Below, in pieces: positions 411 through 24,385 of a DNA stretch of 64,000 nucleotides. The notes beneath the pieces were generated by a model. It was not told the DNA's origin. It did no database searches and saw only the letters and a program-made list of their open reading frames with translations. Numbering within the stretch: the first letter of the stretch is position 1; each line of letters begins with the position of its first letter. Source of the stretch: a virus. The DNA lies in IMG/VR virus record IMGVR_UViG_3300048573_000442, one strand, 5' to 3'. A program made the translations under genes and the position numbers.

Positions 411-3400
411 TTAGCTCCCGGTTACGGTATACCCAAAAGCTGTACTTGTTCTTCGCACTATAGCAAACATCGGGTTGGTTGTAGAAGCGCGAGTCAGGGT
501 CGTAGTCGCACCGTTCAAGGTGACTGAACCAGCAACCGCAACAGAAGTAGTTCCTGCTGTCACCATGACAGCGCAACCAAATTGGGCAGGTAAGGCTTCT
601 GGTACCGTCAAGACTACGCCATCCGCAGTGATTTCAAGAATGTCGCCATCATCAGCTGCGGTCAAAGCTCTTGACACCGAAACCAAAGTAACGTTTGTCA
701 CTGGTAAATTGTCAAGCCTGTCATTGATAGTAATAATGTCAGCTGAAGCAATCGCGGCAGAACCTTCTACTACCCCAACACGTGTCGTGAGCGCAGTAAG
801 ATCATCTACGATAAGGTCACGAGTATCATCAACATACGTAATGGTATTTGCATCAGCTAATTGCAAACTTGCTTGAGTTGTTGCAACTAAAGTATTCACA
901 GCAGTAAATCGCGTGTCAATTTGACTCTGCATTGAAATAAATGCTGCATCAGTAGTAGCTTGACTTGCGCGAGTAGTATCAGTCGGGTGGACGTGATCGC
1001 CTCTAGCCCAAGTAACCCCAACACCCGGTAAAGCGGTTCCATCTTGCAGGGGAAGCGTATCGGATGCTAAAGCCTCTGTAGATGAGACTGAGCCGAATTG
1101 AACCAGAAATGTAGCTTTAAGACCGATTAGGTTCCCAGCGCCAATATTCAAAACCGAGATAACGATCAGGTCATCTGGCTGTAATGAAGAAATCTGAAGA
1201 TCGGCAGAAAGTTTCTTAGCTGAAAAAGTTCCTGATACTATAGTTGCCGGAACTCCGCCGACAAATAAGTTGGATCCGTTAACAGTGATGCCAATGGTCG
1301 CATCTGCTGTGAGTGCTGAAGAAGTTGCAATGTTAATTTGAACTTCTTGTAGCACTCCAGCTCGAGGCATTCTGAAATTAACACGTTCACCTATTGCAGC
1401 GATTGGCGTAGTTTCATCTGAACCAGCAACAATGATAGGAACAACCAATGCGCCACCTGCAGAACCAAGTGCTGCCAACGCTGCGCTTAAGCCGGTCACT
1501 TCAGAAATCGCGTGCGCATGAACAGCATCCGCTTTGGCAGCTAGCGCTGTCGTTACAGTTGCAGAATCAGCTTTGTCAGCAAGTGCAGTGGTCAAACCAG
1601 TGACTTCAGAGATTGCATGCACATGGACCACATCTGCTTTATCTGCAAGGGCATCTGTTAGCCCTGTTACTCCAGCTATAGTATGCACATGAACTGCATC
1701 TGCCTTGTCAGCTAGGGCGTCTACTAAACCAGTGACGCCAGAGATTGCATGTGCATGGACAATATCCGCTTTATCTGCAAGTGCAGTAGTCAAACCGGTG
1801 ACCTCAGAGATAGCATGGGCATGAACCACATCTGCTTTGGTAGCTAAAGCTGTCACTACATCAGCTGTGCTGGCTTTATCTGCAAGTGCAGCGGTTAAGC
1901 CTGTCACTTCAGAGATTGCATGTGCATGGACGACATCGGCCTTATCTGCCAAGGCGTCAGTTAAACCAGTGACACCAGAGATGGCATGCACGTGTGCTAC
2001 ATCTGCCTTACCGACTAAGGCGGTAGATAAACCAGCAACATCGGTAATAACGTGACCATGACCGACATCAGATTTCGTTGCTAAGGAAGCAGTGACTGTT
2101 GCACTATCCGCTTTGGCAGTTATTTCTGTTTGGAGCGCCGTTACATTGCCCACTACAGTTGTCAACCCTGCAACATCAGTGATAACATGGGAATGAGCCA
2201 TGTCTGCTTTACCGGCTAACGCAGTAGATAGCCCAGAAACGTTTGTGATTGCATGGACATGTGTAACATCAGCTTTACTTGCTAAAGAACCTTCAAGTGA
2301 AGAAATTCTAAGCATATCAGCTGCATGCATATAACCATCTTCACCAATGGTGGCTCGTGGCATTGAAATGGTTTTGATCGCAGTCCCAGTAATCTGAAGC
2401 GGAACTTCAGAATTCAAAGTGAAACTAGATCCACCGCCGCTATCTGAAACAATTGGGGCAACTACATCAGTTTCCCAATCAAATGTGAGCATAATACTAT
2501 TAGTCGCGCAAATTACGCCAACGCGAACATGCTTATAGCCAGCAGGCTTTTGCGTGGTTGCTTGTCCGCTAGCATCACAGTAAATTGAACGGCCGATTTG
2601 ATTTACTGGCCAGTTCCATGATTCATTTACAACTTTCTTTCCCGCTGTTACTAGGGCGACTTGCGTATTAGCAACCGCGCTTGCAGTAACCATGCCTATT
2701 GGTGCACGGGTGTTATCATTTGACAGGTTTAGACCTGAAGCCTTACTAACAAGAGATGAACCTGACAAGTAGACGATATCAAAGGCTGCCAATGGAGTTG
2801 CAGCGGTTGCAACCAATTGTGAACCTTCGAACTTAACTAGAGAACCGGTGTCTACGCTTAAAATCGGGGTTTCGCTTGTTAAAAATTCGCCTGCATTAGA
2901 TGTTCGTAACGCGTTTCCTAAGCCATCTCGTAAAACATAACCAGATGAGAACCCGACGTCAGAACCGACAGCATTGATTCCGACTTGTGTTCCTATAGCT
3001 GAAGGAATTAAAATAGAACCTGAATTTAGAGTGCCAGCAAATACGACTAGGACTGCTTCCCAAACAGAGCCATTCCATCTTTTTGTTTTATTCGCCGTGA
3101 CATCAAACCATAGGGTATCAATAAGCTGGGTTGGCTCAACTGCTGATGTCACGGGAGTCCGCAAAGTAGATTTTCTTACCAAGTCTCCAGTTCTTGAATC
3201 TATTTGCCAATAAAGGTAAACCGTGCTAGTTCCAGAAAATGGACCCCAAGCATTAACAACTGAACGCGTTTCACTAATTGTATAGTTAGCAGTTCCACTG
3301 GCAATCGTTGCAAGAATTGACGCACCGTTAATGACTATATCAACCCCGCCTAAATCATTTTTCTGAAGTGAATTCGTTGGAAGAGCAACTACACCTTGTC

Positions 3401-3416
3401 TGAATCTAATGTCCAT
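411..3416 (-). CDS. Tail fibre / virion decoration protein with HxH repeats (1001 aa)
   Basis: Ala/Thr/Val/Gly-rich; ten 22-aa KADxxHxHxIxxVTGLxxAL repeats typical of phage fibre shafts; WFD...W motif; sits in the structural cluster. Confidence 0.7.
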   Translation of the reverse strand: MDIRFRQGVVALPTNSLQKNDLGGVDIVINGASILATIASGTANYTISETRSVVNAWGPFSGTSTVYLYWQIDSRTGDLVRKSTLRTPVTSAVEPTQLIDTLWFDVTANKTKRWNGSVWEAVLVVFAGTLNSGSILIPSAIGTQVGINAVGSDVGFSSGYVLRDGLGNALRTSNAGEFLTSETPILSVDTGSLVKFEGSQLVATAATPLAAFDIVYLSGSSLVSKASGLNLSNDNTRAPIGMVTASAVANTQVALVTAGKKVVNESWNWPVNQIGRSIYCDASGQATTQKPAGYKHVRVGVICATNSIMLTFDWETDVVAPIVSDSGGGSSFTLNSEVPLQITGTAIKTISMPRATIGEDGYMHAADMLRISSLEGSLASKADVTHVHAITNVSGLSTALAGKADMAHSHVITDVAGLTTVVGNVTALQTEITAKADSATVTASLATKSDVGHGHVITDVAGLSTALVGKADVAHVHAISGVTGLTDALADKADVVHAHAISEVTGLTAALADKASTADVVTALATKADVVHAHAISEVTGLTTALADKADIVHAHAISGVTGLVDALADKADAVHVHTIAGVTGLTDALADKADVVHVHAISEVTGLTTALADKADSATVTTALAAKADAVHAHAISEVTGLSAALAALGSAGGALVVPIIVAGSDETTPIAAIGERVNFRMPRAGVLQEVQINIATSSALTADATIGITVNGSNLFVGGVPATIVSGTFSAKKLSADLQISSLQPDDLIVISVLNIGAGNLIGLKATFLVQFGSVSSTEALASDTLPLQDGTALPGVGVTWARGDHVHPTDTTRASQATTDAAFISMQSQIDTRFTAVNTLVATTQASLQLADANTITYVDDTRDLIVDDLTALTTRVGVVEGSAAIASADIITINDRLDNLPVTNVTLVSVSRALTAADDGDILEITADGVVLTVPEALPAQFGCAVMVTAGTTSVAVAGSVTLNGATTTLTRASTTNPMFAIVRRTSTAFGYTVTGS
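1470..2276 (-). repeat. Intragenic 66-bp (22-aa) tandem repeat, 10 HxH units with three shorter spacers
   Basis: Period 66 bp seen directly (e.g. 1735 vs 1801); units KADVVHAHAISEVTGLTTALAD. Confidence 0.9.
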
Positions 3417-3448
3417 TTTTATCCCCTAATAGGTTGAAAAGCTTTGCG

Positions 3449-3456
3449 TATTTATG
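3449..3456 (-). promoter_or_regulatory. T4-type late promoter-like motif CATAAATA
   Basis: About 33 nt upstream of the 3416 start; recurring NATAAATA before structural genes. Confidence 0.5.
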
Positions 3457-3464
3457 CATGATGT

Positions 3465-5681
3465 TTAATTATGTTTAAAAACTTCTACTGCTCCAGTCCA
3501 TATGCCAATAGGGTTTTGAAGATATTCAGAGGATATAGCAATATTATTAGCGTTCAAAGACATTCTGTAGCCAAATTCATTAAGTTCTCCGACCGTAGAA
3601 GAAGCAAATCTTTGTGTGCATGACCATCCGTTTACATTTTTCTTGAAGATAAACACCGCACCTGCCCATGGCCGATCAAATACTGCCCATGATGATGAAG
3701 TTGCAACCGTTTGTCCATCCGGAGAAATAGCTAATCCATACCCGAAGTAATCAGATGGCCCAAGGCCAGAAGAAAGTACTGCTTGTTGCATCCATGATGT
3801 TCCGGTTCGTGCAAAAACGTATGCAAGTCCTTTAGGCGCCTCAGCAGCAACTAAAGTGTTGCCATCAGCTGATAAGTCTAAATTATTTCTCCCGAACCAA
3901 GCGTTGGAACTGTACAGCGTAGTATTTAATTCTGCTTGATGGGTCCAAGAGGTTCCGTCCCAGGAAAATATTTGAACTCGGCCTGCATTGCTGGCCACTC
4001 CAACCGACCTAAATGGCGAAGAAACCGCTATGGTACTTCCGTCTGCAGAAATTTTAGCAGTATCACCATAACGTTGATTTGTTGCGAAGTTCGGAGGAAC
4101 CAAATCGGCTTGCTTAGACCAGACTGAACCAGTTTTGACAAAAACTTCTGCAGCAGTACCTAAAGAAGTTACCACGAGTGTTCTTCCATCTGCTGATAAG
4201 GAATGTGAAAAACCGAATCTTTTAGAATTAGCAGGGGTCTGCGAAGTTAAGGTAACATTTTTAACGTAGTTTGCACCAACACGATCGAAAAGGGTGACTG
4301 CTCCAGAGTTTAAAAAGCCAGCATCTGTAAAATTTGGGTACCCAATAGCAATAACCGACGAGTCGCTTGACATTGAAACTGATGAGCCAAAGTATCCATT
4401 TACCTGAGAAGTATCTGGGGTTAACATCTGCGTTCTTTCCCAAGAGCTTCCCGTTTTCATAAAAACGAAAGCTGCACCAGCGCCGCCAACTCCCCCGACT
4501 GTAGTTCCTCTTCCAGCTGCAACAATGACTGAAGAATCTGCTGAAATGACAGGTGAACTGAAATACGTGTTAGCCCCCGTAATTTGGAAGTCTAGCTGCT
4601 GTTTGAAATCAAATTTTTGCGGAGCTTGTGCTGAATACGTTGAAATTAAAAAGCTATCGCTGCTAGCAGAGGAGGAAGGAATGAACGTGTAGTCAGAAGC
4701 CAAATCACTCTTAGTGGTTGCAAAAATAATAAATTTGTTTTGGCTTGCAACTACAACTCCACCATATGGCACAGGATTTCCGGGGAATAATTCAGCTTGC
4801 CAATTTGTTCCATTAGCAGAAGATGCCGCAAAGTTTGTATCAGTTAGCGTCGAGAAGTATTTTCCATTACTGTACTCGATATTTGCCCAGTCTGCATCAG
4901 CGGGCATATTAGACAGAGTCCAGTTTACGCCATCAGTTGATACCGCGCCAGGACGGTAATTAGCCGTGACTGCTACAAACTTGCCATCGCCAAATGTTAC
5001 AGATGCCCATGTTTGATACTCGTTAAACCAATCAGGGTCGCCTTTCGGCATAACGCTTTGGGCCCAATTTATTCCATCAGTAGAGCTGAATGAAATTCCC
5101 GGAACATCTGCGGTTGCAGGCCCCTGAATTACAGTGGTTATGGCCACAAATTTACCATTGCCAAAAGCAATATCGCTGACATCACCAAAAGCCGCTTGTG
5201 GCGTAACTGGCAGAACCCCTACCGACCAGCTGAAACCATCAGTGGACACAGCAGAGATATGACGTTCAGCTCCGCCTTGTTCTTTACCGATCGCTATGAA
5301 TTTTCCATCTGCAAAAGTGAGTGCATACCACCTGCTAATAGGATTTAAACTGACAGGAGCCAAAGGCATAACAGTTTCGAACCATATCTCACCATTCGTG
5401 CTGTATGCCAAATTATTAGATGGCATCGTCAATGCAATGTATTTTCCGTTACCGTATGCAATTGACCACCATCGCTGCGGCGCCTGTATCGAAGGCAGTT
5501 GATGTTCTGTCCAAGAAAGCCCGTCTGAAGATTTTAGCGCATAACCCTCTTCAGTAAGCGCAATAAAGTCGGTGCCATATACCGCAGCAGTAACAGTCTT
5601 TGCGCTTGGTAGGGTTCCTTGTTGCCAATAATCCCACTGAAGCGATTGCAGGTTTTTAAAAAAATATGAATTAATAAACAT
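3465..5681 (-). CDS. Double beta-propeller protein (BNR/Asp-box-like N half, FG-GAP-like C half), likely receptor-binding or tail accessory
   Basis: Repeated SxDGxxW motifs, then repeated FGxSVxxSxDG...GA...F motifs. Confidence 0.7.
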   Translation of the reverse strand: MFINSYFFKNLQSLQWDYWQQGTLPSAKTVTAAVYGTDFIALTEEGYALKSSDGLSWTEHQLPSIQAPQRWWSIAYGNGKYIALTMPSNNLAYSTNGEIWFETVMPLAPVSLNPISRWYALTFADGKFIAIGKEQGGAERHISAVSTDGFSWSVGVLPVTPQAAFGDVSDIAFGNGKFVAITTVIQGPATADVPGISFSSTDGINWAQSVMPKGDPDWFNEYQTWASVTFGDGKFVAVTANYRPGAVSTDGVNWTLSNMPADADWANIEYSNGKYFSTLTDTNFAASSANGTNWQAELFPGNPVPYGGVVVASQNKFIIFATTKSDLASDYTFIPSSSASSDSFLISTYSAQAPQKFDFKQQLDFQITGANTYFSSPVISADSSVIVAAGRGTTVGGVGGAGAAFVFMKTGSSWERTQMLTPDTSQVNGYFGSSVSMSSDSSVIAIGYPNFTDAGFLNSGAVTLFDRVGANYVKNVTLTSQTPANSKRFGFSHSLSADGRTLVVTSLGTAAEVFVKTGSVWSKQADLVPPNFATNQRYGDTAKISADGSTIAVSSPFRSVGVASNAGRVQIFSWDGTSWTHQAELNTTLYSSNAWFGRNNLDLSADGNTLVAAEAPKGLAYVFARTGTSWMQQAVLSSGLGPSDYFGYGLAISPDGQTVATSSSWAVFDRPWAGAVFIFKKNVNGWSCTQRFASSTVGELNEFGYRMSLNANNIAISSEYLQNPIGIWTGAVEVFKHN

Positions 5682-20985: not shown

Positions 20986-21213
20986 TTACATCCACCCCGC
21001 AAATCTAATTGTTCCTTCTGAGGGGATACTATAAAGTGAAATATTTTTAAACTGCCGCTGATGAAGCATGTTCACAAATTCGTCTTTGGTTTTTACTTTT
21101 ACAGTTGACATTGAAACCGTGCGGCCGTCAACAACATCAACAGGACCAACAGCGTCCCTAAATACGGTGAAGCCATTTTCGGCTAAGTGGGTTTTAAGTT
21201 CTTCGATATTCAT
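20986..21213 (-). CDS. Hypothetical protein
   Basis: ATG at 21213 overlaps the uvsY stop (ATGA). Confidence 0.5.
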   Translation of the reverse strand: MNIEELKTHLAENGFTVFRDAVGPVDVVDGRTVSMSTVKVKTKDEFVNMLHQRQFKNISLYSIPSEGTIRFAGWM

Positions 21214-21671
21214 AATATTGCATCCTGCATCTCTGCAATTCGAAGTTTGGTAATGTTTGCTAACATCCACCCAAGCTGTTTCAGCGCCTCAACAATTGAA
21301 AGCATTTTGCTTTTTAATAGGGTAACTTCAATAATGATTTGATTCAATTCGACAATATCTTTCTCTCCCCCAATATATGCCTGAATATCGCGAGTAGATA
21401 AAGATTTTGAATATCCCTCGTTGTATTTCTTCCAAAGCTTTGAAACCCGTTTTTCCTTGACATTATTCAACCATTCCTCAAGACCTTTTAATTCTTGGTA
21501 CTGTTGATCAAATGAAGATTGGTAATGGGGTAAAGTTCTCGCAATTTCCTCAATGCGGCGGTTTTCTAATTTGAAAATCGGTTCAGCTTTTTCAATCGTG
21601 TTCTCATATCTAATAAGAACATCGACGATCTTGTCAAGTTTATCTTCTTCCAAGTGTAGTAAAAAACTCAT
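21210..21671 (-). CDS. uvsY: UvsY-like recombination mediator
   Basis: Helical; DIQAYIGGE and LKQLGWMLANITKLR resemble UvsY; lies between uvsX and uvsW. Confidence 0.7.
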   Translation of the reverse strand: MSFLLHLEEDKLDKIVDVLIRYENTIEKAEPIFKLENRRIEEIARTLPHYQSSFDQQYQELKGLEEWLNNVKEKRVSKLWKKYNEGYSKSLSTRDIQAYIGGEKDIVELNQIIIEVTLLKSKMLSIVEALKQLGWMLANITKLRIAEMQDAIL

Positions 21672-21693
21672 TTTTGTCCTATATTAAATGAAA

Positions 21694-21716
21694 AATGCAG
21701 CAAAAAATGCTGCATT
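21694..21716 (-). terminator. Terminator-like hairpin after uvsX
   Basis: 9-bp stem AATGCAGCA/TGCTGCATT followed by a T run on the minus strand. Confidence 0.5.
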
Positions 21717-21739
21717 CCTTTTTAGTCAATAAGTAGCTA

Positions 21740-23164
21740 TTAATCCTCTAGCTTGCTAATTTCAACGCCTTCTTCAGCATATGATGTTTCATCAGCCATA
21801 AGCTCAAGAACGCTTTTCTCTGATTGAACCACTAGAGGATGGCTCATAATTAATGCGACTAGTTCTTCATCCAGGTTTTTGGTTTGGAACTTCTTTACTT
21901 CTTTACCGGGAAGTTCCAAAGATTTCCAAGCGCCAGAAGACTTTACGACTCCGAGATCTTCCATCATGTCAAGAAATCCGGAATACTTATTCATGCCAGA
22001 TGCGTAAGGCACTTCCACTTCCACTCGAGTTCCGACTTGCGCAAATCGTGATTTATAAGTTTCAACCTTCATGCGAACCCCAATAATATCAGAGCCGTCC
22101 TTTAGTTTTGCGGGGACGATCAACATGATCTGGCTTGCAGAATAGCGAATTGCGTTGTTCACAATCCACAGACCTTGACCATTCATCAAATCAGTGTTTG
22201 GATACACTTGGTGGGTCACTAGGAACGTCATCGGGTTTCGCTTGATACGCGACACAATGGTTCGAAGCATGTGCTTAGACTGCTTAGCTCGTTGACCCTG
22301 ATCGCCTTTCTGAACACCTGCTTGGAAGTGATCATTTTCAGAATCGGTAATTAGCATGTCGATTGAGTCTAATGCAATTACTACTGGCGGACTATCAGGA
22401 TTATCGCGGCCATAGGTTTTTTCGTAAGACGTGACGAATTCAGAAATAACCTTGACAACGTCTGCAAAGGTAGTTACACCTGCATATAGAAAATTATCAG
22501 GATCAACATTGACGCCGATCTTTTTCAGGTAACCAATATCGAGCGCATGTTCTGAATCAAGCATAACAACAAATGCACCCTGTGCTTGCGCATTCTTTAC
22601 AATGTTTGACAGGATGAAACTTTTACCACTATTGTGGGAACTAATACCGGTTCCACCCCAATATCGATGGTTATCATGTGCCACCTCAAAATCCCAAACC
22701 GGCTCATTTCGCCCGGTTTGCTCTACAGCAGCCTGCTGCAATCCACTTGATGTGATTACTTCTAAAGTGGTAACATCTTTTGCGAATACCCAGCCAACAG
22801 AGGTTTCGACAAGGTGGTCATCTGAACAGACCATTTCATGATCGACGGTGTTAACCTTCACAAGGTTTCGCGGGTTTTTCTCAAATACTGTTGGCACATA
22901 CTGTGGGCCATCTGGGGTATCTACCATTAATGTCTTACCGGATTTCGCCGCATCGACAAAATCGCGCATGGTCATTTGCTTCAGATTTGCAAGGACGTGT
23001 GCATCCCATGCAGCCTTCAGCTTATCGGTTCCGACGCTAAATTCGTCATCCGGAGCGGCGAGTAAATCCTCAAAAATAGAATCTGAAATTCCAATTTTTG
23101 ATACCAACTCTTCGCGGGTGTAAAAACTTAAAAGCTCTTTTAAAATCGTATTTTTATTAAACAT
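21740..23164 (-). CDS. uvsX: RecA/UvsX C-terminal part preceded by a 178-aa intein C-fragment
   Basis: AAGGA 5 nt before ATG 23164; CSDDH block B, VWDFEV block F, SHN|SGKS junction; then LDSEHA, ALDSID, GGA-like NNAIRYSAS RecA motifs. Confidence 0.85.
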   Translation of the reverse strand: MFNKNTILKELLSFYTREELVSKIGISDSIFEDLLAAPDDEFSVGTDKLKAAWDAHVLANLKQMTMRDFVDAAKSGKTLMVDTPDGPQYVPTVFEKNPRNLVKVNTVDHEMVCSDDHLVETSVGWVFAKDVTTLEVITSSGLQQAAVEQTGRNEPVWDFEVAHDNHRYWGGTGISSHNSGKSFILSNIVKNAQAQGAFVVMLDSEHALDIGYLKKIGVNVDPDNFLYAGVTTFADVVKVISEFVTSYEKTYGRDNPDSPPVVIALDSIDMLITDSENDHFQAGVQKGDQGQRAKQSKHMLRTIVSRIKRNPMTFLVTHQVYPNTDLMNGQGLWIVNNAIRYSASQIMLIVPAKLKDGSDIIGVRMKVETYKSRFAQVGTRVEVEVPYASGMNKYSGFLDMMEDLGVVKSSGAWKSLELPGKEVKKFQTKNLDEELVALIMSHPLVVQSEKSVLELMADETSYAEEGVEISKLED

Positions 23165-23189
23165 GTTAGTCCTTAAGCGTATTTTGCCA

Positions 23190-23456
23190 TTACTCTTTTT
23201 TAATTTCTGGCGCAAGACCCGGATCAGTCTTAAACACATACGCAGAAATTACTTCATCGGCAGGCAAGCACCCCGAAGGGCCAGCCAGGGCTGTCACTCG
23301 ACCTTGGGGAATGCCTTTAACGAAGGACCCAGAAATAACTTTATTCAGTGCCAAGTTACCAGTTGAATACCAAAATCGGGGTGGAGAGAAATCGGTAACG
23401 ATTGTCTCCATTTTAGAAAGTGATTTTTTGAAATCTTTTAAAAAACTTAAACTCAT
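23190..23456 (-). CDS. uvsX: RecA/UvsX N-terminal 62 aa plus a 26-aa intein N-fragment
   Basis: STGNLALN..ISG...GIPQGRVTALAGPSG then CLPADEV (intein block A), TAA stop. Confidence 0.85.
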   Translation of the reverse strand: MSLSFLKDFKKSLSKMETIVTDFSPPRFWYSTGNLALNKVISGSFVKGIPQGRVTALAGPSGCLPADEVISAYVFKTDPGLAPEIKKE

Positions 23457-23518: not shown

Positions 23519-24385
23519 TTACTCTTCTGCTTTGGCCGCTTTTGCGCGAGCGCGAAGCTGTTCTAGAACTGAAGATGATTTGCTTACTACCGGTTCTTCA
23601 GCTTTAGGCTGTTGAGCTTGGGTAGTTTCAGTGCGCTCCGTCTTTGGCTCTTCAGTTTTAGCCGTTTCTTTTTGTTGCTTAGGCGCCGCGCTTGAACCAG
23701 TTTGTTCTGCCAGAAGCAAAGCCTCTACTACAGAGCGTTCAGGTTTAACGCCCACATAATCACGCAGGTTAAACAAGTTGATTTGCTCAATAACATCATC
23801 ATCAAGACTCGTCTGCTTTGGCGAGAAGCTTGAAGTGCTGTAGGACGCATATTGACCAGTTTTGGTCTTCTTGATACGGAAGTTATAGCCGCCGTGGAAT
23901 GCGTAAGGAACTTCCTCTAGATCTCCTGATTGGAATGCAGATTGAATTTGTTTAAACACTGCAGGACCAAAATCAATGAGTTTAACCAGTTGATTCTGAT
24001 CGTGCTCAATTGGTGATTCAACTACGATAACCTGACCGATATAGCTTTTCTTGCGATAATACTTTTTGCCCAAGGTCTCGTTCTTTTCATCATAGAACTT
24101 GCGTGAGAGAGCGCAAATAGGACAATCTTCGTCAAACATGGACAAACATGGAATACGATGAGTTTGGCCATTTACAACCAATTCATGTTCAAGTTTTTCC
24201 ACTAGGAATTGAAGATTATTGTCTTCGTCAAGGTCTGGAAGGAATCGCACAACTGCTTGCGAATCTTCTGGCATTTTCCAGAATGGGTATTTCAATTTCC
24301 ACGTTTGATCGCCACCGTCGCCAGAACCAGTAGCCTTTTTGTCAAATGCACCTTTGAGAGCGTCTAATTTGTTTTTGATTGTCAT
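23519..24385 (-). CDS. T4 gp32-like single-stranded DNA-binding protein
   Basis: AVVRFLP, CL...DCPIC Zn-site-like, YIGQV, GYNFRIK, Y..SSF; flexible tail. Confidence 0.85.
   Translation of the reverse strand: MTIKNKLDALKGAFDKKATGSGDGGDQTWKLKYPFWKMPEDSQAVVRFLPDLDEDNNLQFLVEKLEHELVVNGQTHRIPCLSMFDEDCPICALSRKFYDEKNETLGKKYYRKKSYIGQVIVVESPIEHDQNQLVKLIDFGPAVFKQIQSAFQSGDLEEVPYAFHGGYNFRIKKTKTGQYASYSTSSFSPKQTSLDDDVIEQINLFNLRDYVGVKPERSVVEALLLAEQTGSSAAPKQQKETAKTEEPKTERTETTQAQQPKAEEPVVSKSSSVLEQLRARAKAAKAEE

Follow-up and report, generated by a model that had tools for sequence, protein, structure and literature searches.

An uncultured T4-like giant phage very probably encodes its UvsX recombinase in two pieces bridged by a VidaL-type split intein

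The uvsX recombinase gene in a 64,000-nucleotide (nt) stretch of viral DNA (IMG/VR record IMGVR_UViG_3300048573_000442; hereafter the window, meaning the whole stretch analyzed) very probably consists of two open reading frames (ORFs) that specify one recombinase and are bridged by a split intein, in an uncultured T4-like giant phage. The first ORF, of 88 amino acids (aa; 23456..23190, minus strand), comprises 62 residues of UvsX followed by 26 aa that begin CLPADEV and end at a TAA stop; the second, of 474 aa, begins at an ATG at 23164 on the same strand and comprises a 178-aa segment, then SGKS and the remainder of UvsX. The 26-aa and 178-aa segments are referred to below as IntN and IntC, and the UvsX segments as the N- and C-exteins. 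An AAGGA ribosome-binding site (RBS) ends 5 nt ahead of the second ATG. An original prediction, made from the DNA letters and their translations, had described these ORFs, the spacer, the AAGGA site, the ATG, and the intein motifs, and all of its coordinates are borne out on the minus strand. Its reading of the locus as a split intein with a 26-aa N-fragment is now supported by conserved stops and starts among relatives, intervening endonucleases, purifying selection, and a HINT-fold model that lies closest to the split intein VidaL.

Both exteins are recognizable as parts of UvsX. The N-terminal ORF matches phrog_97 ("UvsX-like recombinase"; E = 1.3e-9), and its extein aligns with residues 31-64 of the solved phage UvsX 9gbg, up to the P-loop; the C-extein matches Pfam RecA (E = 2.6e-12). 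When compared with the intein-less UvsX of the Ralstonia jumbo phage RsoM2USA, the N-extein is 67% identical over residues 4-63 and the C-extein 56% identical from residue 64 on, and the two meet at residues 63/64 (GPSG/AGKS; slashes mark junctions throughout) with no gap and no overlap. The insertion is in frame, lies inside Walker A, and leaves the exteins colinear with the intein-less homologue. Joined, they amount to 62 + 296 = 358 aa with the Walker A sequence GPSGSGKS, which fits GxxxxGK[ST]; the earlier proposal that splicing would rebuild this motif and a 358-aa RecA agrees with the exact abutment of the exteins on the RsoM2USA protein. A search of GenBank phages found no close DNA relative of the locus.

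The two intervening pieces carry the residues of an intein. In IntN, Cys1 directly follows GPSG in the window and is invariant in 11 N-terminal ORFs; among the first residues Leu, Pro, and Glu are nearly invariant in this set, and a Tyr and a Phe further on are invariant. IntC contains block B (CSDDH, with His117 and a Ser in place of the usual Thr), block F (VWDFEV, Asp158), and block G (SSHN, His177 and Asn178, ending at 22631), and all 30 sequences compared share His117, Asp158, His177, and Asn178. Position +1 is occupied by Ser, which a few relatives replace with Thr; the intein-less RsoM2USA protein has Ala there. Pfam searches with the intein pieces returned no Hint or intein family at E = 0.1; a search of PDB sequences with IntC returned VidaL (6vgv, E = 4.2e-16). 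An AlphaFold2 model of IntC, built with 30 natural sequences (predicted local distance difference test, pLDDT, 91.9), likewise matched 6vgv first in Foldseek (E = 1.4e-9; template modeling score 0.77 on the target; root-mean-square deviation 1.6 Å; 37% identity), followed among the PDB matches listed by other inteins and intein-like Hint (BIL) domains. The model thus predicts a HINT horseshoe fold for IntC. A nucleophile at position 1, the block residues, the HINT fold, and insertion at the host site are those of a class 1 intein, with splicing itself predicted from them.

VidaL residue 24 aligns with IntC residue 62, and the model helix 66-74 corresponds to HINT alpha1; by this alignment, the window intein would be split right after the first hairpin, strand beta2 (the S1 position). 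VidaL itself seems to occupy the P-loop of UvsX, at the same host site, because the entire VidaL chain with its flanks (ESG/C...HN/SGK) aligns with the contiguous UvsX P-loop intein P0035 (residues 61-203).

The original prediction had proposed comparing homologues for the same stop and RBS, and both are found. A search with the 88-aa ORF identified seven clusters of 87-93 aa and 57-95% identity that end within a few residues of the window stop, and three further N-terminal ORFs came from retrieved relative loci; all ten are 85-103 aa long, are 49-95% identical to the window ORF, and stop at about the same place. The closest relatives, L009 and L012, have 94-95% identity in the N-terminal ORF; their DNA is ~81% identical to the window and their proteins ~95%. 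AAGGA/AGGAG-type sites precede the start of the C-terminal half in L009, L012, and L011 as well. Additionally, eight loci (L004, L007, L010, L013, L014, L016, the P0009 contig, and the cultured Pseudomonas phage PA5oct) have an ORF of 356-477 aa between the halves; L013 and L014 lie on contigs of 291 and 277 kb, and the L004-type intervening ORF is present in L005 and L006 too. Five others (L009, L012, L011, L015, and the P0014 contig) have no intervening gene, as in the window.

The intervening ORFs constitute one family, with the motifs IEYNGSxxHPN and VWDxDD. Their C-terminal part matches a "VSR endonuclease" of a Tenacibaculum phage (tblastn, 36% identity, E = 8e-6), and PHROGs gives a weak pointer to a Vsr-like nuclease; Pfam and PDB sequence and profile searches returned nothing. 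In L008, a 49-aa ORF between the halves (L008:4280-4429) matches the last ~45 residues of this family (…TVWDIDDEDD…) and is, judging by this match, a decayed endonuclease remnant, a putative case of loss in progress.

Two explanations of the junction other than a split intein were already raised in the original prediction, which had noted that the downstream frame is open back to 23239 and that removing one A from the A6 run would fuse the N- and C-terminal frames; both features are seen in the window. A sequencing or assembly error in A6 would conceal a true A5 gene with a contiguous, cis-splicing intein of ~213 aa, and some contiguous relatives (e.g., P0029) do have a comparable linker and helical extension. 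Programmed +1 frameshifting or transcriptional slippage at A6 would instead provide some full-length, cis-splicing precursor beside or in place of trans-splicing. Neither is borne out by the relatives, in which the same stop position recurs in 10 independently assembled sequences down to 49% identity. Between the N-terminal stop and the ATG, a TGA closes the C-terminal frame in L009 and a TAA lies in that frame in L012, while the frame offset is +1 in the window and L009 and +2 in L012 and L011; the halves in these relatives thus cannot be joined by a single-base change or a conserved frameshift. A Shine-Dalgarno sequence and an ATG are conserved after the stop, and a whole gene separates the halves in the eight loci listed above. 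The junction RNA is ordinary (z 0.55), with no stimulatory structure, and the stop-free stretch up to 23239, of 25 codons, is not unusual, having a probability of ~0.2-0.3 by chance on a rough estimate. Given the conserved stops, the frame differences, the Shine-Dalgarno site before each ATG, and the ordinary junction RNA, the split appears genuine and both explanations unlikely: a base error is extremely improbable, and programmed frameshifting or slippage is very improbable as well.

Several observations nonetheless weigh against the split-intein reading or parts of it. Contiguous inteins of the same family occupy the same UvsX site in P0025, P0026, P0029, and P0035, so that a contiguous form would be viable; and the window's own C-terminal frame is open across the N-terminal stop, with the A6 run 3 nt upstream, and may give rise to a minor frameshifted or slippage product. 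Alignment is the basis for the proposed docking of the 26-aa IntN and for any role of its 10-aa tail, and the intervening ORFs are identified as probable Vsr-like homing endonucleases from their motifs, the weak PHROGs pointer, and one tblastn match.

Selection was estimated as the ratio of nonsynonymous to synonymous substitution rates (dN/dS; Nei-Gojobori) between the window and L009 and L012, with dS of 0.45-2. The ratio for IntN was 0.01 (vs. L009, dS 1.6) and 0.04 (vs. L012, dS 0.45), that for the IntC core ~0.025, and that for the exteins 0.001-0.06. These low values point to strong purifying selection, which maintains both IntN and the IntC core. The first 57 residues of IntC had ratios of 0.24-0.41. 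Window positions 23015-23155 (IntC residues 3-50), which evolve at this fast rate as compared with ≤0.06 elsewhere, adjoin the point at which the endonuclease gene would formerly have been inserted; they may stem from co-conversion tracts or from escape from cleavage.

A third alternative is that the halves no longer splice, the locus being either a decaying uvsX pseudogene or a source of two polypeptides that associate non-covalently through intein remnants, for which the fragmented NrdA of an Aeromonas phage provides a parallel (PMC3045599). Splicing is here predicted from sequence, and the fast-evolving extension domain would be compatible with such decay. Against this, the splicing residues are all intact and conserved, purifying selection acts strongly on IntN, the IntC core, and the exteins, and the break interrupts the Walker A loop, whose backbone has to be continuous; additionally, no second uvsX was found in the 64-kb window, where tblastn used only endonuclease and IntC queries. 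Loss of splicing is therefore considered very improbable.

A split intein acting in trans remains the preferred reading, and we infer its mechanism, trans-splicing included, from homology to VidaL and class 1 inteins. A sequence scan of the window identified no promoter and no terminator between the two halves. A single transcription unit would yield two polypeptides, UvsX(1-62)-IntN (26 aa) and IntC (178 aa)-UvsX(63-358). The short IntN hairpin would dock in the HINT core of IntC, Cys1 would form a thioester, and Ser+1 would attack it; cyclization of Asn178 and an O-to-N shift would then yield the 358-aa UvsX with its Walker A motif intact.

The window element is a relative of VidaL and a new example within a known kind. 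It is an atypically split intein of the VidaL type. The two have in common the Cys1 ... SHN/S chemistry; the S1 split is published for VidaL (PMC13014065), and the alignment suggests a putative one for the window. They differ in the length of IntN (16 aa in VidaL vs. 26 aa in the window, with an extra, conserved 10-aa tail), in the ~57-aa four-helix Cro/C1-like domain that starts the window's IntC and that VidaL lacks, and in sequence, with only 37% identity between the cores. Splicing has been measured for VidaL, with a half-time of ~1 min, and its structures are available as PDB 6vgv/6vgw (Burton et al. 2020, as cited in PMC13014065), whereas the window intein is known from sequence and model. 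The window element stands out for its 26-aa IntN with the conserved tail, its helical extension, and its lack of an endonuclease.

At 26 aa against an IntC of 178 aa, the window's IntN is inside the published natural range of 15-37 aa (PMC13014065). That range is represented by the atypically split inteins AceL TerL, GOS TerL, VidaL, and PolB16, which are used for semisynthesis (PMC13014065, PMC10189870); VidaL and PolB16 are both split at S1 (PMC13014065). AceL TerL, GOS TerL, and PolB16 OarG resemble the window element in combining a short IntN (15-37 aa) with a long IntC and in coming from phage-like metagenomic DNA, but they reside in other host proteins. The TerL inteins are furthermore split after helix alpha1 ("S2"), and PolB16 is cysteine-less and has a long IntC through an insertion elsewhere (T84-D101).

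With respect to the endonuclease, tblastn found no homologue in the 64-kb window, where only 25 nt separate the halves. Because eight related loci have the endonuclease and the window does not, the window is an endonuclease-free derivative, like gp41-7. This allele is described by Dassa et al. 2009 (PMC2677866), who report fractured genes with Vsr-like free-standing homing endonucleases and control hairpins, and propose endonuclease loss as a later step. We read the window's uvsX as a fractured gene of this kind. As in those genes, two co-oriented adjacent ORFs in the window specify one phage DNA-metabolism enzyme and the break carries intein halves; the window's relatives share with them an endonuclease between the halves, with the same motifs and RBS hairpins. 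The window differs in having neither an endonuclease gene nor a leftover hairpin, and in the sections of PMC2677866 consulted here UvsX is mentioned only as a neighboring gene.

Inverted repeats that pair with the RBS just upstream of the endonuclease ORF were observed in L007 (4268-4330; CCCTCCTAG...CTAGGAGGG) and L001 (937-990; GTCTCCG...CGGAGAC), and in PA5oct, as in L007, inverted repeats cover the RBS of the intervening ORF. By analogy, these resemble the control hairpins of fractured genes. PA5oct (NC_071039, gp276/gp275/gp274) is similar to the window in its insertion point (GESG/C ... SSHN/SGKS), in its short IntN (17 aa), and in an IntC 39% identical to the window core; it differs in the 477-aa ORF between its halves, in lacking the helical extension, and in being annotated as "hypothetical protein" and "UvsX-like recombinase" rather than as a split intein.

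The simplest history compatible with these alleles would begin with a contiguous P-loop intein, into which a free-standing Vsr-like homing endonuclease gene would have been inserted after the first hairpin (second strand). Deletion of the endonuclease in the window lineage would then have left the stop, 25 nt with the RBS, and the start. The order of contiguous intein, endonuclease insertion, and loss is our reconstruction.

The helical extension at the start of IntC is absent from VidaL and PA5oct. In the AlphaFold2 model it comprises four helices (residues 4-12, 17-24, 28-36, and 46-59; pLDDT 86-95). Pfam gives weak matches to Cro/C1-type helix-turn-helix (HTH) families in relatives: L013 reaches the HTH_26 cut-off, and HTH_26/HTH_3 matches in L004, L008, L014, L015, and L016 are below it. 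The window's own extension has no Pfam match, and it carries an acidic segment where the recognition helix would be. Foldseek matches to the isolated extension all had E > 1 and are not significant, though most are XRE/Cro domains. The matches in relatives and the predicted topology suggest that the window extension is Cro/C1-like. One idea considered was that the HTH domain decays after loss of the endonuclease, since in the first eight loci HTH matches occurred only with an endonuclease or its remnant; it was dropped because the endonuclease-free L015 also matched HTH_3 and three of the endonuclease-free loci are close kin. A further possibility, to which we assign a rather small probability, is that the IntN tail and the four-helix domain form an extra module, so that the split intein would carry its own DNA-binding or regulatory domain where it is split. 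If so, the module might capture the partner fragment, or might tie UvsX maturation, or endonuclease expression and homing, to DNA binding.

A profile of the N-terminal ORFs matched 391 of 1.84 billion representatives (clusters at 50% identity), and the best 150 matches were assigned to classes. Short ORFs that stop 17-34 residues beyond Cys1 account for at least 26 of these 150, contiguous inteins for 8, and intein-less sequences for ~91. The split UvsX arrangement is common in metagenomes. The original prediction had called such inteins rare and valued for protein ligation; the best-known member, VidaL, is a published protein-engineering tool, and the rarity has to be qualified, given these counts among UvsX clusters. 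A literature search found no description of a UvsX P-loop split as such, although VidaL is apparently one and PA5oct is an unannotated example.

Members of the window's intein family, likewise with an atypical split, were observed in the P-loops of other proteins: PhoH-like ATPases (L003, 93-3355; P0022; P0034; …TGKAG/C…SSHN/TGKT) and DnaB-like helicases (P0037, P0039). Its target seems to be Walker A loops in general. In L015 (2644-6081, on a contig of 227 kb), uvsX is broken into three ORFs. An N-terminal ORF of 97 aa has an IntN of 18 aa; the next ORF breaks off within the N-fragment of a second intein, of canonical type, after ...KPKGGQ/C; and the third, ~1.1 kb on, past a minus-strand Cys-rich ORF of 103 aa, comprises a 49-aa IntC (...SSN/C) and the C-terminal end of UvsX. 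This second UvsX intein site is shared with P0016, P0026, P0029, and P0030. Genes next to uvsX in the related jumbo-phage contigs contain inteins as well, namely that for the ribonucleotide reductase large subunit in L013 (8045-9437) and that for the UvsW helicase in L014 (6345-8147; Hint/PT-HINT matches). L007 contains an extra 527-aa ORF (2411-3994) between gp32 and the N-terminal half of uvsX, with weak DUF7487 and Mom matches and a VAVEINGIFFHND motif, which looks like a second free-standing nuclease-like insert.

The features of the window locus are given in the table below. Upstream of uvsX lies a gp32 gene (window 23519-24385; Pfam, E = 2.6e-17) and downstream a gene for a UvsY-like mediator (window 21210-21671; phrog_231, E = 3.7e-9), so that recombination genes are clustered at this locus, unlike in T4.

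Table. Parts of the divided uvsX gene in the 64-kb window, in order of transcription, with the evidence for each
Feature	Coordinates	Strand	Evidence or remark
UvsX N-extein, residues 1-62, ending LAGPSG (first half of Walker A)	23271..23456	-	phrog_97 and homologue alignments
IntN, 26 aa, CLPADEVISAYVFKTD + tail PGLAPEIKKE; Cys1 would be the first nucleophile	23193..23270	-	
A6 run	23196-23201	-	3 nt before the stop of the N-terminal half
TAA stop of the N-terminal ORF	23190..23192	-	A6 run just upstream
25-nt spacer with Shine-Dalgarno AAGGA (23174-23170), without endonuclease gene	23165..23189	-	
Start of IntC: ~57-aa four-helix extension, putatively Cro/C1 (XRE)-like	22994..23164	-	AlphaFold2 model; Pfam matches in relatives
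IntC core, residues 58-178: predicted HINT alpha1 and beta-strands	22631..22993	-	PDB sequence search; Foldseek
UvsX C-extein, 296 aa, starting SGKS (putative Ser+1 nucleophile, second half of Walker A)	21743..22630	-	
Stop codon of the C-terminal half	21740-21742	-	
Terminator-like hairpin and T run after the C-terminal ORF	21691..21719	-	

Because elements of this kind, with this chemistry and apparently at this host site, have already been published, the finding is useful rather than surprising. Semisynthetic protein ligation calls for split inteins with a peptide-sized IntN, of which few have been characterized; the window locus and its ~30 relatives (at 50% identity) constitute a natural VidaL-type series whose IntN lengths span 17-34 aa and in which orthogonal pairs could be sought. 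The alleles also display stages of the homing-endonuclease cycle in one essential phage gene: contiguous, split with an endonuclease, split with an endonuclease remnant, and, as in the window, split without an endonuclease.

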